A stretch of 63,286 nt of DNA, the filler included, from Kipferlia bialata (lineage: Eukaryota): the NCBI GenBank assembly GCA_003568945.1. It is 5 parts of 5 records of this genome, joined end to end, with 100 filler letters (N's around TTAATTAATTAA, not from the genome) between each part and the next. Parts side by side here need not be neighbours in the genome. Positions count along the whole stretch, not along the records: positions 31,927 to 47,775 come from BDIP01000661.1; positions 47,876 to 60,121 come from BDIP01000662.1; 3 more parts are not named here. The stretch is one strand, 5' to 3'. A program made the translations under genes and the position numbers. This document shows positions 31,927-57,300 of the stretch, piece after piece (position 1 is the stretch's first letter; every line of letters starts with the position of its first letter). The notes under the pieces were generated by a model. That model did no database searches, was not told where the DNA came from, and saw only the letters and a program-made list of their open reading frames with translations.

Positions 31927-34900
31927 CCTGTCTGAGCTGTCTCATGTAGTTGCCCACCCTGACAGGGTCCTTTCTCATGATGTCTGTCGACAGGGTGGTG
32001 ATCCTGGGGGTGAGGTGGGACTGTATTCAATTCATGCACGCTATCCATTCATATATAATGAGTCACACTCGTTATATAGGCACTATACATATAGAGTATG
32101 CCCCCTACCTCTGCATCATAGCCTGCAGAGCACTGTCAGCTGTCTCTGGCTGTGTGCCATCTGCTGACAGGACAAGAGGGTCACCAAGGGGAACGGCCTG
32201 GATGACCTAGGGTGAGACATATATACATAAGTGTATATACATATATGTATACGTAGAGAGAGAGAGAGAGAGAGAGTAGGGTAGAGAGATTGAGAGAAAT
32301 AGCAACAGGGTCACCAAGGGTAAAGTACCTTCGAGTTTGCGTCAGAGTTGACTGCAAATCTACCAATCTGCACTGTCACGGCTATCAGTACACACGCCAT
32401 GCAGGGGACCTTGGGCTTCTTAGGCACCACAGCAGTAGGGGTAGAAGCAGCAGGTGTAGCAGGGGTAGGAGTAGGGGTAGGGGTGGGTGTAGGTGTAGCT
32501 GTGGGGCTAGGGGCGGCACTAGCTGTCTGGGCCTGCTGGGCTGGGACTGTAGTAGTAGTACCAGTAGGTCCAGTGGTACCTGGAGACACTGCTTGTGTCT
32601 GCACACCCTGTACACCCTGTGCCTGTACCTGTGTAACACTAGCAGTAGCAGTGGCAGTAGCTGTAGTAACGACAGGGGATGTGGTGGCAGCTGTACCAGC
32701 ACCGGCAGGGGTAGCAGCAGTAGCGGCTGATGGAACCACCTGCTGCACGGGCACTGTCTTGGGCATAGGGACAGGGACTGGCGCCTTGTTGACATCGACC
32801 ATGACCACCATGTACACCCTGACCACTCCAGGCACCCGCCTCCCCTTCACCTTGGTCACTGCCTCACCTGATAGACAGGAGTGCAGGTACCCGGGCCATG
32901 CAGGGGTGGGGGAGGGGGAGAGCGTGGCCAGAGGGCCCGCCCAGACAGTGCTGTCTGTCAAGGGGTAGGCAGTGCGCTTGGCAGTACCAACCTGGGGTCA
33001 GAGTTACTCAAAATCACACATATATACTATATGTCTACCATGTACATACACACCTTCATCCACATCTCTGGGTCTGACACCAGCACCCCATAGGCTGGAA
33101 GCTCGGCCTTGCTCTGAGGGGTGAGTCGAGTACAAGGTTACTGATAGACATCAAACCCTCCACCCACACAGACAATTCTCAACCAACCATACCTGCAGTG
33201 CCGCCTTGACCGTCTGGGGTGGCACCAGTATATATATATCTTGTACACATTCACTCACATATATATNNCTGGGGTGGCACCAGTATATATATATCTTGTA
33301 CACATTCACTCACATATATATACTAATATATAGTGTAATATATACTACCTGTAATGCCGCCTTGACCGTCTGGGGTGGCACCAGTATAGCTGCTAGGGCA
33401 GAGGCCACATATATACATACACACATGTATACATACATAATATATATACTCTATACTCTCTACTCACCTGTAATGCCGCCTTGACTGTCTGGGGTGGCAC
33501 CAGTATAGCAGCCAGGGCAGATGCAACATCAAGGGGTAGCTGGTACAGACAGCCCATGCTGCAGATGGGGGCTAGCTTGCGCAGGATGGCACTGTAGCTG
33601 CCGATGCTGGGGTCAGTGGGCTAACATATAGTGACAAGACTACTAACTGTAAAGATGTGAGGGTGGACTAGGATCAAACCACAATACACTATATAGAGTA
33701 TACATAGTTCATTATTGCTATCCGATATACCTGAAGCCGGACTGGTTCAATGCCTTGGCAAAGGGTTGCAGGATGTTCTTGGACTCGAACCGGCCAGTCT
33801 CCTACGGTGAGAAGCAGGAATGTAAGGGCACAACTAGGTGGATATACAGTACAGTGCGGGTAAAGTACAATGTAGTGACTGTAAAGTAGAATCCTATAGA
33901 TATATGGAAATAGAAAAATACACAACCACTACCTGCAGCAGGTATGGGCACCACTCGGCCCTTGAGACCTGCATGACACCCCGGATGGCATCGCTGGGGG
34001 GTGAGGGAGAGAGAGGCACATGCCCACGATATATACATATATGTGTGTATATATGTTGCATATATATAATACGATCACATATAAAATGACACCCCGGATG
34101 GCATCTCTGGGGGGTGAGGGTGAGGGAGTACACAGTCATCGACTCAATAAATATGTATGATCACTACCCGTGTCCGAATCTGCACATGCACCACCACCTC
34201 CTTACATATAGAATAGTGTACTCATGCTCATAAAATTCCCAAATATATAATACCCACCCGTGTCCGAATCTGTACATGCCCACCATGCACTTGACCACTC
34301 TGCCACCCCTGTGCTCCACAGTCACAGCAGAGCCAGCCCTGGGGGTTAGTACTGCAGAATGCTGATATGGTATTGACTATAGAAAGTATATAAGGAAACA
34401 ACTGGGACAGTCACATCAGAACCTGCGGGTTAGTATTGTACAAATTGATGAGGTATAGTTACACTACCACTCAGTATGTGTCCCAACAGACAGAGCCCGT
34501 TCGTCTGGCTAGATATAGACAATGTAAGCTCCTCTAATCATTATTCTTAAATTATGAATCATAATACTAGAACCCATACCTCACTGGTCTTGACATCTCT
34601 ACTGGGAAGTCTGCCCCCTCTCTGGGTGCAGAGGGAGCAGGCTCGGAGGGGTGGGGGGTGAGGAGGCTGGAGTGGTGACACAGGGCAAGGGGGCCAACGA
34701 CCTAAGGGTGAGAGAGACCCAGGAAGTGTATGTACTCATTGTCTTGTTGTCTGTGCGGTGTCATACCTGCACCGTGTATTGAACTGCACTATTCATAACT
34801 AGCTATATACAAGTATCATGCCCCACCTGCACCGTGTACTGCACACACATCAGGTACCACAGGTCGGTCAGGACCTGGGGGGTCAGGGAGAGATACAAGG

Positions 34901-37900
34901 AATATATAGATACTAAGTAAATGTGTGTATACGTATATATATACCATATAGTAGGTCAGGACCTGGGGGTGAGCAATGCTAGGGGTGCAAGATGGGAGTG
35001 TACTACTATGTACGGAGATGTGGCCTATCAATGCAGCAGCTGCATACTTGACACCCACCAATCAGTACATACACTGCATCATCCAGAGATACCCAATAAC
35101 CACTAACGCCCCTATACACACATACCTGTCTATGTGGCTCCTTACTCGATACCACCGTGGGTGGCACACTCTGCTTGGGAGGGGGCTGGGTCTTGTCACG
35201 AAGCCTGGGGTGAGGGATGTGTAATAACAATAGCATCCAACGCCGTATCAATACACTAAATGTACCTCTCTGCAAATGGCCCCAGTGGGAACTGTACGTA
35301 TACCAGTACATTACCACATACGACACAAGGCAACTCATGTACCCACTAATGGTACTAAACACATCATACCTCTCAGCAAATGGCCCCAGTGGGAACTGCA
35401 TGACCTCTGGGAATGGGGCAGGGATGTCCCTAGTATCTATGGGGCAGGGGGCAGCACCAATGTCTGAGTTCAGATAGATACATGGCATATCAGATAGATA
35501 CATGGCATATACGGATATACACATATCATATACACACCACTCCACCTGGCAGCTCCGTATGCACCAGCCCCAGCTGTGCCAGTGAGTGTATGTGTATGTC
35601 TGTGTCACTCCTGGATATGGGCACTGACACACCCACTCCATAGGCTGGGAGGGGGGCATGGGTGGTGGGGTCAGAGGCCGAGGAGCACACAAACACACCA
35701 AACACAACCCTGGGGGGTTAGTGTGGAGCTATAACGTTTGTAGCAATTACACTAGTGTTACATTGTTCAAGTGTGTTCTTCTAAATTCCCATTCCCCACC
35801 TAGCCACCGATGCCGGGTCCAGTCTGACTGCCGCCTCGGTGGGGGACTCACGGAGCCACAGGCCTGGGGGTCAATAGCTAAACACAAATAGATACTCTAG
35901 TATATATATAGTAGTCCATTAAGTCATTGGGTGACTCACTGAGACCCCAACATGCCTAGGGGTTAAGAGATGGAGATAGAAACACGTATACAAAGTATAC
36001 ACAGGGTCACATGGCTGCGTGCAGAGATCTGTCTATACATATATATATATATATGAATATATCTAGTACCTGGCTGAGTGCAGTCCAGCAGCCCTATGAC
36101 ACCCTGGGGGGTCTGGACACACAGGGGGCGGCACAGACACCTGGGGGTTAGAATACATGAACATATGAATAGATTTTCATTTACATATTTCAATTACGAC
36201 ATACAATTATGTATAAAGGGTAGGCGGCACAGACACCTGGGGGTGAGAGATATGTATAGACATGCATATATACACAGACCCCTCCCACACACATATATAC
36301 ATATATTCAATTATGGCCGGTATCATATACATATAGCTATTTGAATACATACCTTATGTCATCCCCCCCATCCACCCCCTTCATGGGTGCAAAGGACGCG
36401 GCACTCACAGTGTGGCACAGGTCGGTGTACAGGGAGTGGGTCCTGAAGTAAGGGAAGAGACTATACATATATACATAAATTACAAATAGTAAGGCACAGG
36501 TCGGTGTACAGGGAGTGGGTCCTAGAGGATAAGGAAGACAATATGTATACATATATAGATTCACGTAATTCCATGTTCAGGAAGTGTACAGGGAGTGGGT
36601 CCTGGTGGGTGAGGGAAGTGTACAAAGAATTCATATACAAATGGCGCACAAATGGATTATTGAATCTCCCCCTCTCTCTATATATATCTGTCAACGATAC
36701 CTATCGTAGAACAGCATCGCCCTGGCCATGGCTGCATAGTGGTCCCCCGTGACAAAGCACTCGGGGTCAGACACAAGACGCAGCAGCACACAGCCCCTCT
36801 CTCCCTCTCCCTCTCCCTCTCCCTCTCCCTCCCCTTGTCTATCATCATACACCTCAGTAGCCCCACTACCCTCAGGTGACACAGGTGACACAGGGGGGAG
36901 ACAGGCGAAGATGCCAGTGGTGAACACCTCTGGGGGGGTCAGTGATGCATAGAGAACGGGATGTATCCATGGTACTATCGATATATACACATAGCTTGAC
37001 TATACCTAGTGATGGCGGCAGTGCCAGGGATGAGTGGGGGGTGAGGGACCCGGCAAAGGGAGACACGGAGAGAGTCAGGCCGAAACCACCTAGGGTTAGT
37101 AAGACTATACAGGCTAAAGATGATACAGTTCATAGGGTAGTATAGGCACTCACTCTGGCCTGGCCCCGGTGTGTATGCAATGTACTGGGAGGTGGAGGCT
37201 GCTCTCTCCAGTACTGATAGAGAGGCAGAGGCGTCTGATGTGGCACCTCCCTCCTTGGCCTTGGACTGACGCAGGGGGTCAGACCTGGGGTGGGTGAATA
37301 ACTATGCAAAAATTTGCCAGCAATACACCTAATAAGGGTATTATACCCTTAGGGTATATATTGTAAGTGTACGGAGATACTATAGGACCCATACCTGGGG
37401 TCACCCCCCAGACAGAAGCGCCCTGTGAGGTTGGACTCTCTCTCTAGTAGCACCTGCACAGTGGCCCTGTGGTCAGTAGGTATATCAAGTAGATAGAGTA
37501 GTAGTACTGAAATTATGCAGTATATCTTGGTATAGTAGTACCTGCACAGTGGCCCTGGGGGTCAGACAAATACATGGTGCAGTATAGTATAGTGTAGTAC
37601 AGTATAGTATAGTACAGTATAGTATAGCATAGCATTATACAGTGACCCAAATCCTGATCGGTAAAACAATGTCCTGGAGTATATATATAATATACATGTA
37701 GTCGTTTACAAGGACTACACTCTAATACACGCACTCCGTACCTGTAGAAGTGGAATGCCAAGAGTGGCTGCACAGGACATTACAAATATATATACATACA
37801 TATATATATATTCCATCATACATATATGCTTCATACCTGTAGAAGTGGCCAATGCAAACAGAAAGACACACAATAGGATACCCCTTTATAACTAATTATC

Positions 37901-40900
37901 CGTACCTGTAGAAGTGGAATGCCAGGAGTGGCTGCACTGGGCTGAAGGCAGTGAGTAAGGCACCCAGGGTGGGGACACCCATCCAGATAGGTACGCACTG
38001 CACAGGGACGCCGGATAGATCCTGGAGTAAATATCTACACAGGTAGTAGAGAGAGAGAGAGAGAGAGATGGAGACACACTGCACAGGCACACCAGACAGG
38101 GTCTGGTAAGTAGCATATCTATAAATACACATAGAGAGAGAGAATTGGTGAGAGAAGGGCACAGCGAGGGTCTGAGAGCACACACACAGAAACGGGAGAG
38201 AGGGGAAGGAGGTGGAGACATCCGTGAAGTGAGATGGGTCATACCTCCCTCTGTGCACTGGGCAGCATGGGCGTCACACCCTCATAGTGCACGAGGAGGA
38301 GGTCCAGGGACCACCTGGGGGTAAGGGGGTATGGAGTCATATACCGGTGGCATACGAGCACATATGACACACACATATAGTGTATACACATCTATGGTCT
38401 ACTATACCTGGGTGGCATGCCAGCTGGTGTGGGGTGCGAGGTGAGTCTGACGCAGCCCTGGGGGGTGAGTGGACGAAGAGAGCAGTATACACACAAACAC
38501 CAGTTGGCGTCTATATCATGACATACCTGGTCTATAACCTCCCCTGCCACTATCTATGTGTGTGAAGTCAATGTATACGAATGTACAAATAGCTAGAGGC
38601 ATCTATATATACACACATTTACCTGGTCTATAACCTCCCCTGCCTCTGTCCTGAGCCCTATCAGCACAGACTGCCCCTCCTCTAAACTCAGGGTAGGTGG
38701 TGCCACTACACCCTTAACAGGTGGCACAGATATGGCGGTGGACAGGAGGGGGAGGGCAGCTACACACCTGGGGTAAGGAGATAGTGTAGAATCTATGAGT
38801 ACGATGAGTACATATGATACTATTCTATACCTCACTGCGGCCTCTGCTGCTGTCCGGGACAGGGTGGACACCAGACATGACAGACGGTGCGGCATGTCGT
38901 CCTGGGGGTCAGGTGATGTATACACATACGGATACATAGATATATAGAGATAGTGCAGTGAATACAGGCATATACGACAGAAAGTGTGGCATGTCGTCCT
39001 GGGGGTGAGGGTATGTATACCTTGGTAGCACTCAACACATCTCGTACCTATGTATCCAACTGTACATAATATACAATTCTAAAACACATGTGTATATACC
39101 TCTGGCCTCTCAGCCTACTGAGTATGGCAGCACATGCAGTGCAAGAGGCAATACGTAGAGATACATACGTATATATCATATACATGTACACATATGTAAT
39201 ATATTGATACTTACCTCCGGCCTCTCCCCCAGCCTACTGAGTATGGCAGCACAGGCAGTGGCAGTGGCTGAGGGGGAGTCGGTCTGACTGTCTAGAAGGG
39301 CACCGACACCTAGTGTTAGCGCAAAGTGGCATCGTTCTATTTGAGCCTACCATGCTAACCACATTATAATTGAACATGTACCATATAATACATACCTGAC
39401 ATGGCCACTGTCTCGCTGTGCATAGATACATACACCCTAAGAACACACAAGTACTATATCACACACTTATACATATACGTATACTATTGTATATACCCAC
39501 CCGACATGGCCACTGTGACGCTGTGCATGTGTACATATACACCAAGTATACAGATATATACATACAATATTCGTAGCCTATAACAGTGTACACATATAAG
39601 TGTATACAGTGCATCCCCCCACCCGACATGGCCACTGTCACGCTGTGCATAGGCACCTGGACCACAGAGTCACCGGGGAGCCAGCCTGGGTGTCAGGTAT
39701 ATATAATATACTGTATGATTTACACCTGATGACAACTACATAGAGTCACTATTGGGAGCCACAATAGAGGTGATACATATACATGATACTCAGATACAGA
39801 CATATAATAGAATAGTGCTATTGATGCCATGTTGAATAGGGTAGTATTGACACATACACATACACCCACCTATTGACGCCACTGGTATGGGCAGGAGGTA
39901 TAGATCTCTATGCCCATAAACTAAACAACATAATATACGTGTATACATATATATACATATATACTAATATATATATCTATACTTATACATGCGTACCTAT
40001 AGATGCCACTGGTATAAGCAGCAGGTATGACACACTCATATTCAACTGCATACAACTCTCTCTCTCTCTATATATATATATACACCCACCTATTGATGCC
40101 ACTGGTATGGGCAATAGGTATGACACACTCATGTGGACAAGGGGCACATATACTATATATATGATAGGATATACAGATATATATGTATATACTAATATGA
40201 CTATATACCTATTGATGCCACAGGTATGGGCAGCAGGTATGACACACTCATGTGTACCAGGGGGTCAGAGGGACGGGGCTCAATCTGGGGGTGAGAGGGC
40301 TGTACAATGAGCAAATATCTATGTGTATGTATATACATGTGTGTGTGTATGTGATATGTACCTGCACACTGAATGCGAGCATCCCGTCCTGGGCCACTGA
40401 CTCTATGGAGGGTGCACCACCCACAGAGGGTCTAGAGGCCTTGTCACACCCCTCTCCCTCTCCCTCTCCCTCTCCCTCTCCAGTAGAGACTGTGCCTACT
40501 GACACAGGGGAGAACACGACAACCTTGCAGGGGGCGGGGGAGAGAGAGTAGAGGGGGTGGACTGTGGAAGAGAGAGCCACACCGCTCTCTGTCTCTCTCT
40601 CCTCCTGTGCCATGTCTGTATCACCCTCTCTCTCTCCCTCTGTCCCATTGTCTATGCACACCCTACTCTCCCCTAGACCCTTGAGGTATGTGGTTCTGAG
40701 GGCACCCAGGGTCAGACGCACAGTGCCCGCACAGGCCTGGAGTGAGGTATATATATAGATACATGTATATACCATGGTATATATAGTAGACATATATATG
40801 AGACTATAGGTCAGACGCACAGTGCCAGCACAGGCCTAGAAGGTAAGGAGGGTCAGGTATTGACTATAGTTATTGTATATGTACCTCCAGCAAACAGAGA

Positions 40901-42694
40901 TACTGGTATGTACACACATATATATGTGGGTGGGTGGGTGTTTGTATGCCTGTATCACTGTTTTACCTCTGAGACTATGGCCCCTGTGAATGACAGTGCC
41001 AGTGTGGACAGCGCTGTATGCACAGAGTGTCTCACATCAGCCAGAGCCAGGCCCCTACCTCCCCAGGGACGGGGGTCTGTAGCAGTAGTAGTAGTAGTAG
41101 TAGTAGCAGATGGTACTGAGGGTGTAGCAGCAATGGCATCTGTCTTCTTTGTTTCAGACTCACTACTACCACTATCAGTCTCTGTCTTGGGCAGCCACAG
41201 ACCCGCTGCCACATAAGCCCAGCCCTTGCCTGGGGGTGAGAGACAGATGTGGTACTATATACATGTATATATACTTATCAACAAATGTGTACTACTATAT
41301 ATTGGCTCTCCATACCTAACACAGCCAGCAGGGCATCAGCGGCCGAGGGTGTGTGTGTGGGTGCAGCCCCAGCCACTATCCTGCCCTTCACTCTACTCCT
41401 AGGGGTCCCATGTGCACTGGGGGCACTGGAGGGTGTCCTGGGTATGGGTGTGCCGGGCTCAGACTGGGAGACCTGGGTGCCAGAGGGGGTCTCTGCCTTG
41501 TCTGCCTTGTCCGACATGCACTGTAGACCTGACCCCTCGCACTGCTTCACAACCTGAGGGTGTGAGAGGTATATGTGGGTGAGAATATATTAGAATATAC
41601 ACATATATACGTGTGTGAGTCTGTGTGTTTGTATGTGTATCATACGGGGTCCTGTCACAATATAACCATGATTTCCAGCCGTGGAATATATAGAAATAGA
41701 GGGATACCTGCATAGCGATTGATGGCTGGAGGGACCCCAGGGAGAGCACCCCAGAGTTGCCATCACACACTATACCCACGTCCATGCCTGGGGGTAGAGT
41801 ACACAATCAGATACGTCATACAGATACTATATATATATATAGAGAGAGAGAGAGACAGAGAGAGACTATACCCACGTCCATGCCTGGGGGTGGGGGAGAT
41901 GAGTTACTACAGTCTACACTAAACTATAGGACTATTATATACTCCAGCCTGAGAATGGACATGCCTATGTGTATGGGAAGAACACATATACATATCCACA
42001 TTATTAGAACACATATACATATATCCACGTCATGTGGCGAAAGAGATTTGCATGCACACAAACATGTAGCTACATATATAGAAGTATCCACATACCTAGC
42101 TGGTACATGAGTCTGAGACCAATATATATATACCTATATATACCAATATACATCTAAGTACGAATATCTGTCATATTACATACATATACATATACCTAGC
42201 TGGTGCCTGAGTCTGAGGCCAATATATATCTGTGTACGTGTAAATATCAATACATCTATCGATACACAGTATCTATCTATACATACACACCTAGCTGGTG
42301 CCTGAGTCTGAGACTGGCGATGAGGCCTGACTCCTCAGACGGGAAGGACTCGGCCGGGACCTGGGGTGTTAGGCATGAACATACAGACAGATAACACTCT
42401 ACGCCACTACATTATGGGAAAATATATGTAATTATACGATTATACTATGTTATGTGCATACATATATGTACATATATCCACACCTCCTGCGAGTCCCTAG
42501 AGAGGGGTGTCACTGTCACGCCAAGACTGGATACACCCAGGGCCAGGAGGAGGTCATACGCAGCAAGGAGCCTAGGGGTGAGGATGACTGGTTGAATAAT
42601 ACTCACATCTTGTTGCATTCAGGGTTAATGTCACTCCATACCTGAAATGGCACCCCCCTGTCTCTCTGTCTCTCTCTATGTGTGTGTATATATG

Positions 42695-42727
<33 letters not shown>

Positions 42728-44403
42728 ATTCATATGTATACACTCCGCACCTGAAGTGGCTGAGCAGTGCCACCCCCCTGTGCAGGAATGGGGACAGCCT
42801 GGCTATGCCTGACACAACCAGGTGCTTGGTCCTGGGGTGAGGAGATATATATACATAGAGTCATCTCCATCTCGATACATACATTGCATACATATACACT
42901 AGGTGCTTGGTCCTGGGGTGAGGAGAGACATGTACATATATGTATATATATATATCGATATACAGGATTCACATACATACACACCTCTCAGGTTTAGTAC
43001 ATATGACTGGGTTCCCTGTCCCACTGAGTGAATACGCACATGTCACCACCAGACCACTCCCACACACCCCTCTGAAGGCTAGGGACGGGGCACGGGAGGG
43101 GTGGGACTCAAAGAGGGCACGGACCTCAGGTCTGATATCAGAGAGGTACAAGGCAGTTACCATATACATATATATATATGAATACACCCATGGATAAAAC
43201 AGGGCACGGACCTCGGGCCAGGGATAGAGAGATAGTCACAGAGTATGGATAGACAGATATGGTATGCAATAATAATTGAAAATACATTAAGTATGGCACA
43301 TCATACCTTGTGGCTGTATACACATGTGGCACGTGTGGCCAGAGGGAGAGTGTGAGTAGGGTGGGGTCAGCCCTGTGTAGCTGTAGCTGGGGTGAGAGAG
43401 GTATTGTATGGTATATATAGTAACATATATGGTATCCTATACAGTATATGTATATATACTAATGCATATTGAGAGTGTCTGCCCTGTGCAGCTGTAGCTG
43501 GGGTGAGAGGGGTATTGTATAGTATATATAGTAATATAGAGTATTATATTATACAGTATATATATATACTAATGAATATTGAGAATGTCTGCCCTGTGCA
43601 GTTGTAGCTGGGGTGAGAGGGGTATTATATAGTATAACACAGTATTACACAGTATATATATATATATACTAATGCATATTGAGAGTGTCTGCCCTGTGCA
43701 GCTGTACCTGGGTGGGGATGTAGGGGGACACGGTGCCATACACAGTGGCAAGGGCAAGCTGGATGGTAAGATGCACTCAAACAACAATACTACTAATAGT
43801 AATGATACACTATACACTCTATAACCACTTTCATGGCCTTGGCCTGGTCTATGATGAGCCTGATACATATTTATATACAATAATCCGTAAGGTATCTATG
43901 TACCAATAGGCATAATATATATGTACACTATACTACTCTCAGTCAATACCTTCATGGCCTTGGCCTGGTCTATGATGAGCCTGATACACAAATTAACACA
44001 ATATATATGTATATATATATATACACAGATACATACATATATGTATGATCAAGCCATGTACCTTCATTGCCTTGGCCTGGTCGATGATGAGCCTCACATC
44101 CTGTGTGCCACACACCATGGGCCTGGGCTTGGCCCTGGAGACACCTAGGGAGGGCGGGAGGCGCTGCCTGGACGTTAGTATAAGTATAGTATACATACAG
44201 TATAGATAGTATATAGTGTGTGTGGGGGGGGGGGAGCTTCCTGGCGTCAGTTCAAGGAGAATCACTAGCAAAGTGAACAATATAACAAAGTGAGAAAAGA
44301 GAACAGGACAAGGCCTAGTACCTCTATCTCCTACCATGTGAATATAGGCATGTAGATATATATATCTGTGCATATGTCAGTATCACCTTGGCACTCTTAG
44401 GGA

Positions 44404-44443
<40 letters not shown>

Positions 44444-47400
44444 GCTATCTATATATATATTAGTATCACCTTGGCACCCTCAGTGATGTCTGCTGCAGAC
44501 ATGACTTGACAGCTGAGGTATCAGCAGCCAGGGAAAGGGAGAGAGACACCAGGGCCTGGAGGTGAGGGTATACTCATGCACATATATTCATATACATACA
44601 TATTCATATATGTGTATATGCATATATATAATCGTCAGACACACACCTGTCTGAGTGCCTTAGGTCTCACCCTCAGCAGCGTATACTATATATAACACTC
44701 TATGTATCAATATGTATCTTCATACATATAAGTATAACATTGTCTATACCTGTCTGAGTGCCTTGGGCCTCACCCTCAGCCATGTATATACACATATATA
44801 TATACACACAATATAAATATATGTGCGTATACATGTATATAGATAGATACTATGTACACAATACCTGTCTGAGTGCCTTGGCCCTCACCCTCAGCAGCGT
44901 GTGCATATATACATAATATAAATCTATATACAGTATATATATACATCTATATACACACATACCTGTCTGAGTGCCTTGGGCCTCACCCTCAGCAGCGTGT
45001 GCACTGCACTGAAGTACACAGCCATCTGGGGGTTGAGGCCGTCCTTGGTGGGGATGACGAGGCGGATGGTGTCGGTGCCTGGGGTTGGAATATAGCTGTA
45101 CAGTCTGTAAACATATATATCCATACACTTGCTCACCTGTTGCGTTGGGTCCCTTCCGTGGCACCTGCACAGGGTATGTGGTCTCACTGTACACCTGGCG
45201 CCACAGCTGCTCGAGGGTCTTCCTGGAGAGTGAGCGGTAGAACAGGGTAATCATATAATCATATTATATGATAGATTTATTATGATAGTCCACTAACAGT
45301 GCACTAGACGCAAGCGACAAGAGATGTATACATATTTCTACACCAACACATCTATATATGTATCTCTCACTATACATATACACACACCTGAATGGCAGGT
45401 CTGCATCGAGTGCCGCCTCATGTAGTGCTGCACCTCTCTCTCTCTCTCTATATATATATATATTCATATATAAGTACACTCCCTCTACCTGAATGGCAGG
45501 TCTGCGTCTAGTGCCGCCTCGTGTAGTGCTGCACCCCCAATAGATAGGGCATCCTCCCTCACAACCACACAGGAGGGGTGGATCAACCAGCCCTGGGCCT
45601 AGGGTCAGGGAGGTATATATATATTCATTTACTCTTTATTATACTGTTACACAATATATGAGTACACACAGCTCATACCGGGTTCTCCACACTGGCAGGC
45701 AGGAATGATATGTCTATGCCCCCTGTGCTGGAGGATAGCTTGACTAGGCCGGCCTCGACCTTGAGGGACACGCCCTGGGGTGAGTGCTATATATATATAT
45801 ATATAAGATAGTATAGTATATATAGGACACTATACTATATATATGACAGCTTGACAAGGCCGCCCTCCACCTTGAGGGACACACCCTGGGGTGAGACACA
45901 TGAATATATATAGGATATATAGGATATTAATCTATACACATGATACTGAGACTGAGGCCGCCCTCCACCTTGAGGGACACGCCCTGGGGGTTAGTATACA
46001 ATGTAAATATGATGTATAATGGATATTAGTACACAATATTCAAGTATATAATTATGAGTGTTCATGAAAGAATATATAGTACCAATATAAAGTGTACCTG
46101 GCGTGAGACTTCGCATTGCGATACATATATTCACATAGGTATAGGTATAGATATCCGTTGCTTAGTATATATATAGTAATCATGGGTACATACCTTTGGG
46201 ATGACGCTGCCCATGAGCATGTCTCTCTCTCTCTCCTCCAGCCACTCTATTAGAGTGTCAGGTGGGGGGTCAATGCGGTTCTAGGGTAAGTGCCATGCAT
46301 ATACAGGGTTATGAGGGTTAGTAAGACACACACTCTACATCATTAACATACTAAGATACATTATACCCCTACCTGCAGTATCTGCCCTATGGCCCTGTAG
46401 TCCCCACTGGCCACAGTGTCAATGGCCCTGGGGGGTGAGGGAATTCAATTATATATATAGGCATGTATATATTAAATGCATATATACATTAATATTTATG
46501 GCTCTGGCGGGTGAGAAGTATGTATAGATATATAGGAATACAATCAGATATATACAGGAATGGAACATACACATACATACCTGTCCATGGGCAGTCTGGG
46601 CAGTGGCATGTATGCCCTCCTAGGGGGTTCTACAGTGGGCATCTTAGTACCCTCCTATAGGGTTAGATTATGGGAAACATTAAATATATACATATATGCA
46701 TATAATATGTATATATGCTGTATTGCAGTGGGCATCTTGGTACCCTCCTGGGGTGAGGACAATATCAAATGTATATACATCCAAACACATACTTCGTAAA
46801 TATACCAACACTGACTCGAGGCTGTTGTTGATTAACACAATACATTGAAAATTGATACTGTTATATATATACATTCCTTATCATATATAGACTCATACAC
46901 CCACCTGGGGCTGGACCTGGCTGGGCAACCCCCACACCCTTGCCCTGACACCCTCCTCACCAGTGACCAGGGAGGTACAGCCCACAAACAGACCCTGGTG
47001 TAAGGATATAAGAGATGTATATGGTAGATGTATATATATATATATGAATAGACAGTCAGTAAGGAGGTACAGCCCACAAACAGACCCTGGGATAAGTTGT
47101 ATAACAGAAAGAAATATCGGTGTATATATAGTAGTATAGTGTACACATATTTCACCAGGGAGGTACAGTCAACAAACAGACCCTGGGCGTGAGATGAATA
47201 CATAGATATATATATATATATATATGTACAGGGAGGTGCAGCCAACAAAGAGGCCCTGAGGGTAAGGATATATAAGATGTATATATGATAAATAATAAGA
47301 ATATTGTAGATGTACACTAAATATATATGTCACCAGAGGTACATCCCACAAACAGACCCTGGGATAAGATGGATAGAAGAGCATATGTCTGTACTAGAAG

Positions 47401-47712
47401 TATCCACAAACAGACCCTGGGGGTGAGTACATAGGACATTACAACATATCAATGAATGTATATGTTCTGGAATGGAAGGGTGTATACCTGCGCACTGAGC
47501 CCAGTGTCACAATACATAAGAGTACACAATAACATACAAATAGTCATAGAAATATATGCATCCAGCACAGCTCACCATGTTAACATATATGTAAAATACA
47601 CACCTGCGCACTGATGTCCATGCATGTGTCCAGTGTCACAATGTCACCCCTCGGCCCAAACTGCCAGGTGGACTTGACAATGCCATAGCCCTTGATCAAG
47701 AGGGCTATGGCT
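31927..47712 (-). CDS. MED14: Very large multi-exon gene, probable divergent Mediator subunit 14 (both ends truncated)
   Basis: About 40 or more GC-rich exons, all on the minus strand. Spliced PLPRLPMDRAIDTVASGDYRAIGQILQNRIDPPPD...MLMGSVIPKGVSLKVEAGLVKLSS resembles the MED14 N-terminal block as I recall it (RLPxFAIPxAIDVLTTGxYPRLP...LP...LTVANGRVKF). The gene itself is well supported; the identity is tentative. Confidence 0.5.
33191..47630 (-). repeat. Intronic tandem partial copies of exon edges (about 30 clusters)
   Basis: Examples: 4 copies of acctgtctgagtgcctt at ~44645/44748/44862/44961; 6 copies of cccacaaacagaccctgg-like at 46970-47420; 4 copies of gccctgtgcagctgta-like at 43370-43705. 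Confidence 0.92.
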
Positions 47713-47724
47713 GGGGGGTCAGAC

Positions 47725-47775
<51 letters not shown>

Positions 47776-47875: not shown

Positions 47876-47919
47876 GCTCTTCCCAAGGTTTTCCCCCCCC
47901 CCCCCCCCCCCCCCCCCCC

Positions 47920-48240
47920 TCCCTCTCGCTGCTTCCTTGCTCATCCATCAGGACAGCGATGTCCTCATCCACGCCCTGCTCCCATACGTGTGGTCCGAGA
48001 CCGGCATTGATGAGGTGGGGTCTTCCAAGCACCTCCACCATAATCCTTCATTCTACCAGTATACTCTAGATAAGCTGTAGTCACTCACCCCCCCCAGATC
48101 CTCATGGCCGGCACCATCATCCACCCCTCCCTCACAGAGGTCCTCAGGGGGTGTCTCTTCAACGTCAGGGCCAAGCTGCTGGCAGAGGGCGTCGAGATGA
48201 ACCCTCTCGCACGCTACATGGCATAAGTGATACAGGTCAC
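47920..48240 (-). CDS. Possible fragment of a hypothetical gene
   Basis: Two GC-rich acidic exon-like segments (LDALCQQLGPDVEETPPEDL; LGRPHLINAGLGPHVWEQGVDEDIAVL) separated by a gtgagt...ag intron. Confidence 0.3.
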
Positions 48241-48487
48241 GTATCTCAACGGGAAGTAGATTGTGTGTGTTTTCCACGGTTCCACGCCGCGGCTACCGTG
48301 GCTGTTAGTGGTTATTGAGCGTTGCCATTAGACTCATAAATGACCAGGTCTGGGTATTATTAAGCTCACATGCGTGTAGTATGGGATCGTGTATCTTGAT
48401 ATACTGTTGGAGAGAAAGGGGCTAGAAAACAAAAATGCTGTTGGCTTCCCTGTTCAGTGTCTCTTCATCACACATACACACACACAA

Positions 48488-49678
48488 ATGGGTTGGTTTG
48501 GAAAGAAGCAGCAGAAGGCTGCCCCCCTGTCCCCTATGGAGTCTATCCAGGCTGTGAATGGCCAGCTGCAGACACTAGGTGCGGGAGGTTTTCATGTCAA
48601 GAACACGATAGACCCATCTTTTAAAAGACACTTTTGTAGTCCTGTACTGACTCCCAGATGCCAAGATCGTCGACATGGAGCAGAGGACACTCAAGTTCAA
48701 GCAGCAGGCTCAGGCATACATGAAGGGTGAGATCATAAACCTCTGTTTTCTGTTTTTAGCCCTTCTTTCTGTGTCTTCACCGCAACACGGTCATGTATTA
48801 TTGGGTTATCAACGGTTCTCGTTAGTTGTGTGAGTGATGTGTGTGGATGGGTTGTAGGATACCAGCTTGTCCCCCATGTGGTGCTTTGCAGGGAGTGTAT
48901 GTATTCAGGGCCTTGGATTTATGTACATGGTATATTTTTGTCTTTCCCTGATATCTTCTCAGAGTTATACAGTGTGTCCCGGTGTGGCTTACATTAGTCT
49001 ATGTTAGTACACTGTATCCCCATGCACTTTCCTGTGGTATCCTTCCTTCCTCTGCCTCTTTTATAGATATCTCACGACTCTCACCCCAGCTGGCCAGAAG
49101 AGCCAGGCTGTCAACTACCTCAAGCAGAGCAAGATGACACAGGGGCAGGTGAGGGCACACTGCACCATGATTGCCTCGATTAGTATATATATAGTGGTGG
49201 GGTTATGGGTGGATTATGTGTTCGGTGTCGTTGAGAGAAGTGTTTTACCATGAGGTTTAGGCATATGACCATCCTCTGAACCTGTTCGGTGTCTTCTTAT
49301 ACCTTGTTAGTGGTGCTGAATCTTGTCTGTATTGATATATGAAGCGTTAAGTCTTCCCTTACTCCTCACCATCTTCTTCTCTCTCTCTCTGACTCACTCC
49401 AGGTGTCCCAGCTCCAGAACCAGCGCCAGATGCTGCAGTCCTCCATCTTTGACATGGAGAACGCCATGTCCACCGTGGAGATTGTCAGCACAATGGAGAA
49501 GACCAACCAGTACATGGGTGGGTACAAATGCAACAATATGGCATCAATATACACTCTCCCTCTCCCTCTATTTTATCAGTATTATTAACCTTCAGGAGTG
49601 GTCACTGCCCAGCTGAAGCCCGAGCGTATGGATGCCGTGGTGTCCCAGGCCCAGGAGCAGAAGGACGACATGCGTGAG
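48488..49678 (+). CDS. Snf7-family ESCRT-III subunit (C-terminus missing)
   Basis: MGWFGKKQQK...ESIQAVNGQLQTLDAKI...KSQAVNYLKQSKM...QLQNQRQMLQSSIFDMENAMSTVEIVSTMEKT...ERMDAVVSQAQEQKDDMRE. The Vps32/Vps60/Vps20 subfamily is unresolved. Confidence 0.85.
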
Positions 49679-49795
49679 GTACCTCTTCATCTGCTCTCTT
49701 TCATGATATATATACTTTAGATATTCCTACCCACCAGTTATGCATCATTTGATTTCATCCCCCTCTTTGTGCCCCCCCCCCCCCCCCCCTCTCCC

Positions 49796-49834
<39 letters not shown>

Positions 49835-49939
49835 TACTCAACCTGGTATCCATCCATTTCTCTCTCTCTCTCTGATCTCTCTCTCTTTCTGCCAGGGTGT
49901 CTTTCCTATCTTGGTCTGATATATGTCCTATCTCTGTCT

Positions 49940-49975
<36 letters not shown>

Positions 49976-50114
49976 CCCAGTCTGAGATCCTCCCAACCCT
50001 CCTGATAGCTGGTCTCTCTCTCTCTCTCTATCTCTCTATCTCTCTCTTATCCCAGTCTGAGATCCTCCCCACCCTCTTGATAGCTGGTCTCTCTCTCTCT
50101 CTCTCTCATTCCAG

Positions 50115-53100
50115 TCTGAGATCCTCCCCACCCTCTTGATAGCTGGTCTCTCCCTGGGCCTTGCACTGGTCATACTCACAGATAAGGTATAAGTATAAGG
50201 TACTAGTATATATATACGCATATATATAATAAGGTGCATATCACATACATATTCATGTATCACTGTATGTGTGTCACATACAACTGGTCTATCCCTGGGC
50301 CTTGCACTGGTCATGCTCACAGACAAGGTATATACATACAGACATGGTTGACATAGTATAGTTTCATTGTCGGCGTATTGATGCAGATATTGCCTTGCAC
50401 TGTATATACTCACTGATAAGGTATCCCCCCCTCCCCTCACTTAGTCGCATATTCTCTCACGATAGAACATACGCCCCTTCGTATACTTCCATCGTTCATG
50501 CCTGTTCTTATACACACTGTTTCCGCGACACCCGATCTTCTCTAAGTATTAATCTATAACCTATAAATATACGAGTAGATATCTCCTATTGCCCTTCCCT
50601 CACCCCAGAACATGCGCTCATTCGTGTACTTCCAGGCAGTTGGGTTCGGTGAGTGGTGTTATCCCCCCCCCCCCGCCCCTCCGTCTCTCTCTCTATTTGC
50701 CCTTGTACCTCTGGACAGAAGTCACTACCTATGGAATATCACCACAGATATTCTCTGTTTTCCTTCTATTTCATGGCGTGTTAACCCTAGCACTCACCGA
50801 GAACTCTATTGCCTGTGCATCTCGCATATGGAAGTCTGGGTACCCAGCCAACGTATATATACTGCATGGGGCAGGTATTGATTCTATTCAGATTAGATGT
50901 AAAGGTCTAAGACTCATTGTAGACTGCATTCAACCCCCGGTACTATTGTATATTGCACGGGATGAGTGGCTGTCGCATATATATAGTGTGATAATTTCAC
51001 TTCGTCCTATCCAACCCTAACCCTCAGGCCTGGCTACGCGTAGCCCTTGATGTGATTCAGCCCTGTCACCTGTTGATTATGGGGGCAGTACTGCCCTTGC
51101 TTCTCCCCAAGGTATTGATACTATAGACTCCCTGACTCTGTTTGGACTGGATACTGAATATTCGTGAATATTAATATACATTATTCTCTCTCTGACAGAG
51201 TGACTCAAGTAACACTGTGGTGTATACATAAACATATACTTATATATATATATATATGCCACTAACCCCTAGCACTCCCGTCTCCTGAGAGCAGCCAACA
51301 GGAAGCGATGGATAATCAATGGGTTCCCATTCATACTAGGTACACTAACTATTTGCCATTGGTGCCTGCTCACTATTTGGCCTCTTGTCTCTACCCTCTT
51401 CCCTGTACCAACAGGGACTCGGTATCATAGTTTACGCATGTGTGTATGGTTTTGTATAGTAATGTCACGTTAGGCCCCCTTGTCTCCACCTTCTTCCTGT
51501 GCCAACAGGCACTTATAACCAGTACATGTATTAATATATATCAGAATGTCTACATCTACCAGATACTTACGCACAGGCCCCGTAGTTGCCACCTTCTGTC
51601 TTTCCCAGCAGGCTCTGGGCATAGGGTGTCAGGAGGGGGGCAGGGACTACTGCTGGATCGCATTCAGTGAGTGGTCTTAGTATACATAGCTCTATACTCT
51701 ACTGATATATACTATTTCTTTACATCTTTATATAGGAGAATGAATTACTGTAACGTCGTATATAGTTGGGTGGTCCATGTACATACGCCAATCCAGCCGC
51801 AGTAGAGGCCTCTCTTTTTTGATACATACTCAAGTCTGGTTGTTTGTAGCAGTGGATATTCACCCCTCAGACGCCCCCGCCTGGTACAAGTTCCTCGCCT
51901 TCTACGGGTGGATATTCCTGTTCGGGGTCGTGACAACAGGTGAAACTATGATCATGTATATTCATATTTGTATATGCTCTCAATAGTTTGTGATAAGTGG
52001 TCAATGGTGGTGACAATCTATCTAGAGAATGTATGTGTATTGGATATCTAAAGATCCTGTATCTCACCTCAGTTGGTGTCATCTACACCATAGTTATAGT
52101 CAACCGAGAGGCCAGAGTGAGAAGGATGGTACGTTCTAGATGCATCTGGAGGGACTCAAACCTGGCAGTATATGAATACTCTTTCCTATCTCTTTCTCAC
52201 GGGAGTTGTTCCCACACATATATGTATATACTATTGTGTGTGTATGTGTATTATATATGAACTATTCATTATACCCAGGATTCGCTACACTACGATATAT
52301 CATACTATAACTTCTTCTTATAGAATGGTATCTTCTATGTACATAGTGTCACTGACCCTAGCTCTCCTCCCACAATGGAGCTGACGGTGTCTCCCTAGAT
52401 CCCACGTATACTAGGACATGTTTAGATATACTCTATATATACTATATTGTAGTATCGTTTTAACCCTGACTCTAACACATAGCTGTCAAGCCATCATGCT
52501 GACGGTGTCTCCCTAGATCGCACCAGACATGATGACATCGATGGGCAGGAGACTGCTAGGGAGGAGGGAAGAATGGCTAATAGGTACTTACTTAATACGA
52601 GTCTGAGTATATGTGTGGCAAGAATAGGATTTAGACGATATATATATATTTATATATATATATACACATATAGTATATGTAGTACATTTTATCTATTGTG
52701 TACTACTTCATTCTCTCTGACCCCCAGATTCAAGAGGATGTTCATACTTCCCATCTTCAGTGCACTCATATGGACACCGCCAGCAGTCAGGAGGTATGGC
52801 TATACTGAAGTATGCACTAGTATGCTATATTCACGCATATTGTATGGAATACAGGTTCAAGAACACTGTATGTCCCCTGACCCCTAGGATACTGCAGTCC
52901 ACCCAGCCGGACAGAGTGGAGAACCCCATATGGCCCACGGTACGTGTGACTGATCATAGAACACACTACTGCATTCTCTACTGATCCTTTGCGTCATATT
53001 GTGGGTAGAGATTTGTGTCAATATGGATGTATCCTTGTCACAAATACTGTTTCGATATTATGTATATGGGTGTATTTATATATATGTGTATTGAAACATT

Positions 53101-53188
53101 TATGTATACGCGTGGATCTCACCCCCAGGTGCACATGGTCTGCAACTGGGCATATTCATATTCCCGTGTCACAAATACTGTATCGATA

Positions 53189-53232
<44 letters not shown>

Positions 53233-53947
53233 CTTGGTGCACATGTATACATATGTATATATAAATTCATCAGTCTGACCCCCAGGTGCACATGGTCTGT
53301 AACTGGGCATACTCCATTGGGCTCATTGTGATCACAGCACTCAACACCCAGGTACCGTATTACTCCACGCAATATGGATATTCGTTAGCAATTCTTTGTG
53401 TCAGAAAATATTTGACTTTGATATAGATTTATCTTCTAATGTGGTTATAGGTACTCTCAGTATTGTAGTCAAGTATGTCATGTCTCATCCCAGGTCCTTA
53501 GACGCCTCCTGTGCATGGGTGCCCCAGTCCCAGGTATATATATGCATACATATATATATATATAGAGAGAGAGAGAGCCATATATGTACTGACAATACAC
53601 TGACACTGACCCTCTTACAATACAATTTGTGGTATCTGTTGTGTATATGAATATATAATGAACTGTTGGTGCCCCAGTCCCAGGTACAGATATAAGTATA
53701 TATATGGACACACATATATGTAGTATTCTGATACTGACACCAGTATATAGTGTATGTGTATTATATGGTATATATAGGTGAATATATATAGACCTTCCTG
53801 TGCATGCATGTGGGTGCCCCAGTCCCAGGTACACTGATACTATGAAAATATCTATGATGTATGATGTGTATACAATGCCTAGACTTTGGTTGTGTTGTTC
53901 TCATCCCAGACCGTGCTACAGTCAGACAGATTCGGAGCCACGTTTAA
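50115..53947 (+). CDS. Seven-transmembrane cAMP-receptor/GCR1-like GPCR-type protein (start not visible)
   Basis: Phase-compatible exons give 7 hydrophobic helices, with ECL2 GGRDYCWI, TM5 FLAFYGWIFL, TM6 FILPIFSALIWTPPAVRRIL and TM7-H8 ITALNTQVLRRLLC. Stop at 53947. Confidence 0.72.
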
Positions 53948-54360
53948 CACTGCCACGCAGTCCATAGGAATCGACTGGATCCAGAGAGCTGTATATGTGG
54001 TTCATGTGAGTTCCTGGACTAGTCTAGTCTTGGTTTATTCAACAAGACGTGACAGTATCCTCTCTTTCTAATGACACGAGACGAGTAACCACTCGTCATA
54101 ACAGTGTCAGTATGTAACAATAGACGTAACAGTTATTGACTATCAATCAGATGGGTAGCTCGAACACACAAAGATCTATTGACATGAGAGTACCCTCTGC
54201 ACACACTCACGATGGTCGCAAGCTACACCCTGGTTCGGATAATACACTATACACCCACAACACACATATACTGAAGAGGTGCGCTCAAACGTTACGTCTC
54301 AACCTTTTCACGTCTCAGTACTCTTTAAACGTAGAACACGCTTAGTAAACGTCCATGCCC

Positions 54361-57300
54361 TCAGTGGAACATGAAGTAGATGGGGTCCTCCACACGAGAG
54401 GCCCAGTCTTCCTAGAGAGTCAGAGTGGAAAGTGCTATGTCTCTATACTATAATCTATATCCCAAAGAGTGATACTAGAAGGTCACAAGAGGATAGTAAC
54501 TTACAATCAATAACCATACATATTCCATACGTACCACATCATGTCCCTCTTCTTCACCAATGACAAAGGCCAGGTCCTCATCCCTCTCCTCATAGCCAAT
54601 GCCCCTGAGGCCAGACATGACCTGGTTGTGAGAACGGTATCCTATAGTCATACCCAACATGATAATATACATAGACAACTACCATATATGTCTCGTATGC
54701 TGCATCATCGACAAGATACCTCCAGCACTAATCTCTCCATATCTATACACACACTATATGCACAACCTGCTAGATCCTTAGCAATTGCCTTGTAAGTTTC
54801 GTATGCCTCATCGTCTACTATTACATAGTACACAGCACGTACATAAAAGGCAAATATATATGTATATAAATACAAACAGTAATATATGCTTTTACCTTGT
54901 AAGTCTCGTATGCCTCATCGTCCAACGTAGTTTGTCACTATCAATATTCTCACATCTATATGTGTACTAAACTAATTTCATATATATCATTAGAAGTAGA
55001 CTATATATATATATCACCTTGTAAGTCTCGTATGCCTCGTCGTCCACAGTAGTATGTCAACATCTATATATTCTAATCTATATGTGTACATATATATCAT
55101 TAGACGTAGACTATATCACCTTGTAAGTCTCGTATGCCTCATCGTCTACAGAGCCAGTAGCGAGGGTATAGGATCCTTCATACAAGGTATCGGTCTCTGT
55201 ATGCATCATTAGTACTGATATTGCCCACTACCTTGTAAGTCTCGTATGCCTCATCGTCTATAGTGCCAGCTGAGAGGTAGATCTTCATGTCTGTGTCCAA
55301 GGTGGAGGATGGGATGACAACATTGTACATGTCCTAGGGTGGGTATCACATCTAAGTTAGTAATCATTTCGGAAGTGTTCACTTTATAGGTTTTTCAATC
55401 ATTTATTAGTAGAGAATAGTCAATGTACTTGTCCTTGGGTATATGACACACACAGATAGATAGTACATAGCATGGATTCCAATTACTTCATGTATATATA
55501 TATGTGGAGAGGATGACAATGTGAATGGTCATATATATTTACCTCATAGAGAATATGCATGTCTCTATACCACATATACGGGTAAGAATTACCTCGTTGT
55601 TCCATGTGTACACTGCAGACATGGCACCCATATATGTGTAGTGAATACTTCAATATACATTCTATCCTACACATACACATATAGTAGATACTTCTATGCT
55701 GTTCTTACCTCGTTGTTCCAGGTGAATATTGAGGACATGGCACCAACCCCACCCCAGGTGTCACCATCCTGGTTCCAGGGGCCCTTGGCAACACCTGGAG
55801 TAAAGTAGTATAGATAACAAATGTGATGAGCAACCGGGTTGTCACACTTGTACACTAGAATACTATATTAACCTGGGTAGCATGGGATGAGACCACCAAC
55901 CTCTATATGTCATAGGAGCCCCAAGATAAATGTGGCTATATAGAAAACAGGATGATGCCACAATGTATACAGTATACATTGTATACATACACCATCATAC
56001 TAACCTGCGTAGCATGAGATGAGACCACCGAGGTCAGAACACAATATATATATTCTACTATATACATATACATATATGTATATACATATATATATATACA
56101 CATATATGCACTCTAACATTACCATACCTGCGTAACATGAGATGAGACCACCGAGGTCAGAGCCAATGAGCATGATGTCCTGGAGTGAGTGGAGACATAC
56201 ATGTATATAGTATATAGTATATATATGTATATGTATGTCCTCAGCATAATGTCCTGAGGTGGGAGAAGAACCAGTGTAGAAAATGGTATTGTTTGTAGAA
56301 CAGAGCACATAGAATGCTAAAATGTGTGAATGAGTACACCGCTGGGTTAACTCCAATCCACCAACTATATACTATACTATCACTATATATGTATTCATAA
56401 TAGAGATATATGTATATATATATATATATATGAACATACCTCTGGCTTGACGTCCACCAGTCCCTCTCCCACCATGGTGTCCAGGGAGGTGAGAACAGTG
56501 TCTAGGGTAAGAGATATTCTATGAATACATATATACCATATCATGGAATATATGTATATTGCCTATATATGAGGATATATGAATTCTGTCCCACCATGGT
56601 GTCCAGGGAGGTCAGCACAGTGTCTGCACAATATAGTATATACATAGAAATGATGATAGAGATACAGTTCATTGGATGTGAGAACACAGTCTGGGATAAG
56701 GAATGAATTCAGACATGAGCCTCGTATTTACATTGTATCATCATGTAGTCTATAAGTGTACTGTCACTGTGGCTTGAGTGTATGTCTACCCGCTATGAAT
56801 GAGAGGTATCTGTCCCCCATCCTACCCTGTCTCATGTATGAGTACTATAAAATATCATATGTATACTCATACACTGTATAGTGTACGTATGTTTACACAT
56901 ATACAACTAGTGTCCCTTACCTGCAATGAATGAGAGGTATCTGTCCCCCATGCCACCTTCCCCTGTCACCACATCCTTGGAGTAGGTGTACTCGTTGGTA
57001 CGGTCATCTATGGTAAGGCTTGAATTCAAATATTGTATAAGTCTTGCGTACACATGTCAGATGTGTGTATATACTATGTCCTTGGAGTAGGTGTACTCGT
57101 TAGTCCTATCTTCTGAGGGTTAACTCAAGTGTGTACATATACACATATATTGTTACTGTACTACATTCATATATACGCATTCATATATATATACGTATAC
57201 ATATATATCTACAAGCACCCATGTGTATGTGTATATGTATGCACACAACATAGCACCTGTTGCGAATAGACCCACAAGCACTAGGTCCTGCACCACTGCT

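Follow-up and report, generated by a model that had tools for sequence, protein, structure and literature searches.

Genes and exon-end echoes of the window

The stretch of DNA considered here (the window; 63,286 nucleotides (nt), filler included) comprises five contigs, linked end to end, of the free-living Giardia relative Kipferlia bialata, and all counts below refer to this window only. Its DNA is of eukaryotic type and has many introns, whose donors are GT and whose branch and acceptor signals are fused; it belongs to a genome that the accessible text of the original report describes as a 51-Mb SPAdes draft built from short reads, containing 124,912 introns and showing a single eukaryotic coverage peak (PMC5874029). 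Three of its genes, designated A, B and C (Table 1), have introns that carry what we term echoes, namely short intronic copies of the adjoining exon end including its splice site. The models of these genes were hand-curated, with every intron GT..AG and every frame open; those of A and C are based on frame, splice signals and composition, and not on RNA. The gene B model agrees with a record labelled 'putative esterase [Kipferlia bialata]' (P0001) across 353 of 353 aligned residues, and the same record was the single protein found among five candidates, with 100% identity over one gene B exon. One exon of gene A, used as the query, recovered no homolog at E <= 0.001 among 2686 candidates, and a Pfam search with ten single exons gave no significant match, leaving gene A without an assigned family as far as the exons tried are concerned; for gene C no family was found either, two of its exons having been searched against Pfam without a match.

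The echo catalogue was built by anchoring exon ends at the splice site and scanning the adjacent introns, with nucleotide score as the only criterion. It returned 86 matches, three of which were dropped (one overlapping a real acceptor-side echo and two gapped chance matches), leaving 83 echoes in 54 arrays that occupy 43 of the 75 introns of genes A–C; the corresponding null, with exon ends set against unrelated introns, gave two matches in 156 trials. Forty-five are donor-side echoes, which lie downstream of the exon and comprise exon end, GT and intron-like DNA; the remaining 38 are acceptor-side echoes, in which intron-like DNA, AG and exon start lie upstream of the exon. Their aligned parts span 8–62 nt (median 27), the units of an array are spaced 52–157 nt apart (median 103), and up to five echoes are stacked together. 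Measured from the last donor echo to the first acceptor echo, the innermost segment is 116 nt long in the median, as against 122 nt for echo-free introns; thus, each array intron resembles a single ordinary intron to which truncated units have been added on the outside. Their far ends are sharp, identity beyond them being 0.23 versus 0.24 in the null. A history of old copies refreshed by conversion, with frayed far ends, found no general support: mismatch rates are alike in the core and the last 9 nt, and homology stops sharply. Further echoes that are older, shorter or bear indels lie at or below the score threshold (47488–47512, 42642–42660, 35920–35955 and 51380–51420), so that the catalogue undercounts old copies.

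Echoes are patchily distributed: copies occur at 63 of 265 splice-site-like positions in contigs 3 and 4, compared with one of 231 in contigs 1, 2 and 5 (Fisher p = 5e-18), and that one is a coding SHIPPO repeat. TATA words reach 33–36 per kilobase in the introns of the echo genes versus 4–6 elsewhere, distinguishing two intron types. Since the region 48000–49900 of contig 4, in which Snf7 is matched weakly (E = 0.002), is both low in TATA and free of echoes, the trait is gene-specific and not contig-wide.

Silent divergence and splice-site use

Pooled over ungapped alignments with kappa set to 2, echoes differ from their exons by 139.5 silent differences over 637 sites and 74.5 replacement differences over 1704 sites, i.e., a silent divergence (dS) of 0.26, a replacement divergence (dN) of 0.045 and a dN/dS of 0.174, the last ranging from 0.15 to 0.22 over kappa values of 1–4 and gapped or ungapped alignments. 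By codon position, 144 of the 214 mismatches fall in the third, 42 in the first and 28 in the second. This bears out a preliminary description of this DNA, which had held that echoes differ from exons mostly at synonymous sites; all the codon pairs that it listed were recovered in place, and the replacement-bearing echoes that it mentioned are real (44865, 55873 and 59830). The residue is kept in 672 and the codon itself in 552 of 733 full codons, and an alignment-free comparison of the first 12 nt gives identities of 0.94, 0.98 and 0.80 at codon positions 1, 2 and 3.

The preliminary description expected neutral duplicates to change at all codon positions alike. That expectation has to be replaced: because the working exon gathers silent changes too, the proper null of one neutral and one constrained copy gives a dN/dS of approximately 0.5. 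Neutral decay of one copy is rejected even so, in binomial tests that assume independent differences, an independence that is not full here (p = 2e-11 pooled; 1.6e-7 with one echo per array; 6e-9 within 24 nt of the splice site; 6e-9 with each variant counted once); the rejection holds on the donor and the acceptor side and for each gene (p = 3e-9, 0.004 and 0.016). A one-copy-neutral control with the same trimming has a third-position share of 0.45, with a maximum of 0.54 in 200 runs, versus the observed 0.67. Compared with each other, the echoes show a dS of 0.36, a dN of 0.048 and a dN/dS of 0.13 (90 silent and 40 replacement differences), where a value of about 1 would be expected of two non-functional copies descended from a single non-functional ancestor. 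Thus, neither comparison, with the exon (0.17) or between echoes, shows what a neutrally decaying duplicate should; as the echoes mutually differ at silent sites, they are not decayed copies of one dead ancestor and each traces to working sequence. Further, the splice dinucleotides are kept in 79 of the 83 echoes (GT in 43 of 45 on the donor side, AG in 36 of 38 on the acceptor side), like replacement sites and unlike silent ones. Taken together, a dN about one-sixth of dS, the low echo–echo ratio and the retained dinucleotides uphold the claim that echoes passed most of their history under coding selection.

Conservative replacements of the E/D and I/V kind, to which the preliminary description drew attention, do not form a general pattern: the mean BLOSUM62 score of replacements is -0.40 versus -0.51 at random (p = 0.35), a result that is neutral for the origin favored below. 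A CpG-type mutation bias behind the third-position excess was considered and rejected, all 12 change types being present with 101 transitions and 113 transversions.

The fate of echo splice sites in RNA can be followed at one locus. Two sequencing runs of the same sample were used: X1, of DNA and possibly the source of this assembly, and X2, not recorded as RNA and taken as such because its contig joins GT..AG exons. On 56440–57125, X2 yields one contig of 1333 nt at a depth of 46, which joins 56501 to 56921 across a 419-nt GT..AG intron with three echoes and continues into the end of exon 57257–57360, bypassing the echo at 57079–57112; in all, four echoes are skipped, and the contig carries exon variants only, with zero other letters. 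Hence, the main mRNA at the gene B locus uses the sites nearest the exon and the exon's own variants. The proposal that echoes contribute to mRNA finds no support here, as this one spliced contig has no echo-specific variant, and use of the echo splice sites would give a stop or frameshift in 77 of the 83 cases; an in-register swap of GT or AG is possible for only six. Accordingly, while present-day coding selection on the echoes, acting via minority transcripts or an unsampled life stage, would suit the retained dinucleotides and the low dN, we consider it very improbable in view of the RNA contig, the predicted stops and frameshifts, and replacements that are no more conservative than random. 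For gene A, the X2 word share of 0.28 on 33300–43200 is near the 0.27 expected for exon-only words and is not counted as evidence for splicing.

Arrays of this kind are natural tests of splice-site choice in a short-intron protist, competing and often stronger-looking sites about 100 nt away being ignored (at the one RNA locus). Echoes would also explain the lengthening of introns in some genes, and they can mislead gene prediction: an automatic gene model mistook several for exons.

Origin of the echoes

Only selection on protein reads codons; hence, most of the path between echo and exon ran through translated copies. One chromosome has one working copy, and conversion or collapse erases silent and replacement differences alike, so that exchange in cis alone does not lower dN/dS below about 0.5. 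We propose that the echoes are dead copies of exon ends, likely derived from other functional alleles of that gene, strongly diverged in sequence, and obtained via break repair or inter-homolog recombination; we place the probability of this reading at about 0.5. The broader proposition that diverged alleles are needed, be it for capture or for copying in cis combined with allelic recombination, appears probable. Capture would imply recombination and a silent diversity of approximately 0.2–0.3.

Briefly, we advance the following plausible course of events. The TA-rich introns would break or slip often and diverge past alignment between alleles, so that the exons alone stay shared. An intron break would then be repaired on a diverged homolog, with one end copying donor intron and 10–60 nt of donor exon, and the copied end would be joined to the other broken end without pairing back, giving exon, cut intron, donor exon end and donor intron in this order. 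Repair by one end would produce just such units as are seen, on the donor as well as the acceptor side, around a complete intron. Products lacking a second splice site would do no harm, as splicing selects the sites next to the complete exon, and hence would persist; copies with both splice sites would make an extra exon and be selected against. Repeated capture, together with misaligned exchange between an echo and the exon of another allele, could stack up to five echoes. Finally, each captured echo would decay neutrally, supplying most of the dN of about 0.045, with the dS of 0.25–0.35 being mostly the divergence of working alleles. With regard to the machinery, the available text of a survey of metamonads (PMC8516963) describes them as without non-homologous end joining (NHEJ) and the fornicates as having lost Rad51A and holding two Dmc1 paralogs, with key meiotic proteins conserved; its section 10 records that no sexual or parasexual process had been directly observed in Metamonada as of 2021, the meiotic genes being kept.

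A toy population simulation (300 chromosomes, three runs per setting, rates of our own choosing) was used to compare routes, a match being evidence of sufficiency and not proof. Echoes made from another allele reached a dS of 0.19–0.44, a dN of 0.03–0.05 and a dN/dS of 0.10–0.25, in keeping with the suggestion of the preliminary description that they were captured from diverged alleles. Rebirth or cycling in cis alone gave a dN/dS of 0.40–0.64 in nine of nine runs, whereas either combined with allelic recombination gave a dS of 0.17–0.28, a dN of 0.04–0.06 and a dN/dS of 0.17–0.27; its other suggestion, that echoes cycle into the exon, thus fails for a single chromosome and stands only when joined to allelic exchange. 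Silent diversity in the allelic-exchange simulations was 0.10–0.22, and most of these runs had a dS of about 0.2–0.3 and a dN of about 0.045. Consequently, although direct repeats at a distance of some 100 nt lend themselves to it, a swapping of roles between echo and exon on the same chromosome, by cis deletion or gene conversion that purges replacements from the echoes, is scarcely tenable, as it removes silent and replacement differences at an equal rate.

The intron parts of the units also bear on the mechanism. Between echo and real exon, the intron flanks have a median gapped score of 4 versus a background of 4 on the donor side and of 12 versus 4 on the acceptor side, with eight of 45 and seven of 38, respectively, above the 95th percentile of unrelated pairs; the intron DNA beside most echoes is near background similarity even where the exon part is identical. 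The whole-length mutual copying of a minisatellite is therefore not seen in most units. Exceptions with homologous intron parts occur at 43387–43707, 49981/50056 and in two units at 55018/55120; to judge from their sequence, these look like recent in-cis copies. They belong, with the 13 of 83 echoes that equal the exon over the aligned part and the several arrays in which all echoes share one variant against the exon, to the evidence for a different history: ordinary tandem duplications in cis, after which allelic recombination or exon-limited gene conversion swapped the working exon (plus flank) for that of a diverged allele. Such a history needs the same hyperdiverse recombining population and no special repair route, and the simulated values for the combined process accord with it. 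We nevertheless regard it as unlikely, if credible, because the flanks of most echoes are no more alike than background whereas neutral decay amounts to only about 0.045, and because the echo–echo differences are silent too, which demands a separate exchange event for each unit.

Donors other than alleles of one population, be they close paralogs, a sister species, or homeologs left from an ancient polyploid or hybrid, would fit the fairly even silent divergence across arrays and certain ortholog-like echoes (with a serine codon switch, an in-frame 3-nt insertion, or the old copy at 38067–38102), and gene B does have paralogs. At least four K. bialata esterases make up its family (P0001, P0155, P0002 and P0003), the others being 44–50% identical to P0001 and the next best hits about 31–39%. 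Yet these three paralogs have the echo residue at only two of 27 replaced positions, and the echoes of gene B agree with the exon they adjoin at 198 of 225 residues (88%) versus 46–53% for the paralogs, so that for gene B, where this comparison was made, no echo origin by paralog-derived conversion is apparent. Further, a single exon end can have as many as five echoes that differ among themselves, and the three genes concerned are unrelated; such a pattern would require many lost copies, and we judge such donors improbable. As the known paralogs are too distant and records of 50–100% identity are lacking, the donors would be alleles or lineages no longer in this genome.

An assembly artefact, in which divergent alleles from a heterozygous or mixed culture had been assembled one after the other, deserves mention as the genome is a short-read draft and one array includes a gap of two Ns (33267–33268) within an exact 55-nt tandem copy at 33213–33321, probably an assembly overlap from gap closing. 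It is hardly credible, however: the echoes begin mid-exon behind AT-rich sequence and have sharp ends, which whole alleles would not give; Ns occur in only that array; and the protein and RNA records contain no second allele. X1 contains 0.98 of the sampled 31-mers of 33300–43200, a weak counter-argument, and not an independent one, as words across echo far ends make up 6% of that stretch and X1 is possibly the assembly source. That the echo variants are heterozygous alleles at one locus is likewise unlikely.

Several points weigh against capture from diverged alleles: (i) There is no age gradient along arrays (dN/dS of 0.177 nearest the exon and 0.168 further away), and silent divergence among arrays is not overdispersed (chi-squared of 55 with 53 degrees of freedom), where overdispersion would tend to follow from a simple coalescent, detection limits cutting off the tails. 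(ii) The simulation does not separate capture at birth from later allelic exchange, and the units with homologous intron parts indicate that copying in cis also occurs. (iii) No second allele was found, P0001 being the sole member of its cluster, with relatives of 50–100% identity lacking, and the RNA contig being uniform, with the proviso that it is one contig at one locus and that contigs drop rare forms; neither was another isolate found in metagenomes, where a scan with P0001 gave relatives in two of 36 stretches, both 31% identical. (iv) The implied silent diversity of 0.2–0.3 is at or above the 0.20 of Schizophyllum, given in the available text of PMC4576712 as the highest reported in 2015, and alleles at a dS of 0.25 whose introns no longer align presuppose a very rapid turnover of introns.

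A bolder version of capture from diverged alleles, which we put forward as a tentative and rather doubtful possibility, is that Kipferlia, with Dmc1 only and no NHEJ, uses diverged homologs to repair breaks of its TA-rich introns so frequently that these come to archive, in stacks, the exon ends of other lineages; the genome would then record a hyperdiverse recombining population, the archived ends would return to exons as repair templates, and the process would occasionally create introns. If the echoes are allele-derived, one draft genome would provide an estimate of silent diversity (about 0.2–0.3) together with evidence of exchange between lineages, and this record would concern a free-living Giardia relative in a group where sex has not been directly seen.

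Related systems, individual arrays and neighboring features

Mutually exclusive duplicated exons of the Dscam type are whole exons with both splice sites, are used in mRNA and show silent-biased divergence. Echoes resemble them in being tandem, exon-derived and divergent mainly at silent sites; unlike them, echoes have one splice site and are skipped (at the one RNA locus), which sets them outside that class. The silent cassettes of antigenic variation (trypanosome VSG, Borrelia vls) serve, by gene conversion, the amino-acid variety of one gene family. Like these, echoes are non-expressed partial copies and potential donors to an expressed gene; unlike these, they store mostly silent variety, belong to unrelated genes, and their donation to the exon is hypothetical.

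Closer in layout is intron 7 of human F7, where, in the accessible account, a 37-bp minisatellite lies across the exon 7/intron 7 boundary, with tandem copies of exon end and donor in the intron; the downstream pseudo-donors are silent and the most upstream donor is used (PMC1557585). The Kipferlia arrays share the repeated intronic splice site and, for four echoes at one RNA locus, the silence of pseudo-sites. As far as that account goes, F7 is one locus with sequence-identical donor pseudo-sites, in contrast to the 54 arrays here, which are spread over three genes and occur on the acceptor as well as the donor side, with units of about 103 nt, mostly unrelated intron parts and silent-differing exon parts. 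Thus, the arrays act like an F7-type repeat for splicing but fail a whole-unit copy test.

The gain of introns through tandem duplication of a genomic AG|GT segment, described in the consulted part of PMC3265369 for, e.g., vertebrate ATP2A1, likewise involves local duplication with splice signals, and its layout is matched at 43387–43707 only, where the upstream exon end resembles an acceptor signal; judged by this arrangement, that intron is a candidate for birth by tandem duplication. As presented there, the duplicate makes a new intron from exon, whereas 82 of the 83 copies here lengthen an existing intron, and the model does not predict the silent bias of echoes. In hypervariable Schizophyllum commune, crossovers fall preferentially in exons (PMC4209137) and synonymous diversity is 0.13–0.20 (PMC4576712), according to the text available for each. 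The likeness that we propose is an allele divergence high enough to concentrate recombination in exons; there it was measured from crosses and population genomes, while for K. bialata the diversity is inferred only, and the available portions of both papers report no intronic exon-end copies. Tandem copies that span a junction and whose pseudo-donors are silent, duplication-born introns and exon-biased crossover are hence already known. A literature search found no account of dense arrays with allele-like exon parts and unrelated intron parts, or of silent-biased exon-end copies, in a body of text mostly outside subscription journals; the supplements of PMC5874029 might mention intron repeats.

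Table 1. Genes, arrays and individual echoes of the window (codon pairs are given as exon/echo)
Feature	Position	Strand	Remarks
Contigs in window	1-15864, 15965-31826, 31927-47775, 47876-60121, 60222-end		
Gene A	31958..47710	-	49-exon model; 1880 open codons; truncated by both contig ends; 49 of 83 echoes in its introns
Second echo of exon 33468-33606 3' end	33193..33232	-	TTA/CTG, ACA/ACG, all silent
Echo of exon 33468-33606 3' end + GT donor	33349..33410	-	62 nt; 5 silent, 0 replacement: GTT/GTG, GCA/GCC, CTG/CTA, GCT/GCA, ACA/ACG
Old acceptor-side echo of exon 37906-38021	38067..38102	-	Below catalogue threshold; 8 of 12 codons differ, 10 of 12 residues kept
Intron of three 110-nt units	43387..43707	-	Units ~84% alike including intron parts; starts with in-frame GT-starting copy of next exon's start
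Two donor-side echoes of exon 44062-44167	43829..43982	-	Silent only; echoes at 43950 and 43829: ATC/ATA, GCA/GCC, AAG/AAA
Three donor-side echoes of exon 44963-45078	44647..44905	-	One identical, one with 2 silent, one Pro/Ala; echo 44647: AGG/AGA, CCC/CCT
Donor-side echo of exon 45489-45598	45388..45434	-	3 of 3 silent
Five acceptor-side echoes of exon 46905-46994	47053..47416	-	Own AG acceptor before each
Gene C	50115..53947	+	14-exon model; 301 codons, open to final stop; hydrophobic segments; 10 echoes
Acceptor-side echo	52362..52406	+	AGC/TCC serine switch and in-frame 3-nt insertion
Acceptor-side echo of exon 53286-53351	53129..53157	+	Silent: TGT/TGC, TAC/TAT; third pair TCC/TCA at alignment end, trimmed
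Gene B	54361..60010	-	15 exons; putative esterase (PF00756); 24 echoes
Five donor-side echoes of exon 55232-55333	54683..55165	-	
Donor-side echo of exon 55709-55794	55593..55628	-	S/A, I/V, F/Y and silent changes
419-nt intron with one donor-side and two acceptor-side echoes	56502..56920	-	Removed whole in RNA contig, joint 56501 to 56921; ends CT..AC on + strand
Acceptor-side echo of exon 56921-57007	57079..57112	-	Skipped in RNA contig, whose loose end continues in exon 57257-57360; echo 57112: GAC/GAT, CGT/AGG, ACC/ACT, GAT/GAC and D/E, V/I

The contigs are separated by artificial linkers (15865–15964, 31827–31926, 47776–47875 and 60122–60221), each of 44 Ns, a 12-nt TTAA-type spacer and 44 Ns, across which distances are meaningless. 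Elsewhere in the window are a GDP dissociation inhibitor gene (9579–11820, + strand; PF00996, E = 1.5e-37) with short, echo-free introns, and an intron-free open reading frame with SHIPPO PG-rich repeats (12073–12714, - strand; PF07004, E = 2e-28), which is the sole source of short-range repeats outside contigs 3 and 4. They are joined by a Kelch-repeat gene (26556–28341, - strand; PF24681, E = 6e-14) and an RNase III-like gene (28761–30430, - strand) with a weak match under the curated cut-off (E = 5e-4). Pure runs of G or C of 27–72 nt occur at 1–49, 15815–15864, 17756–17827, 31779–31826, 47893–47923, 49772–49831 and 60237–60263, mostly at contig ends with two internal, and are possible G-quadruplex sites or assembly breakpoints.

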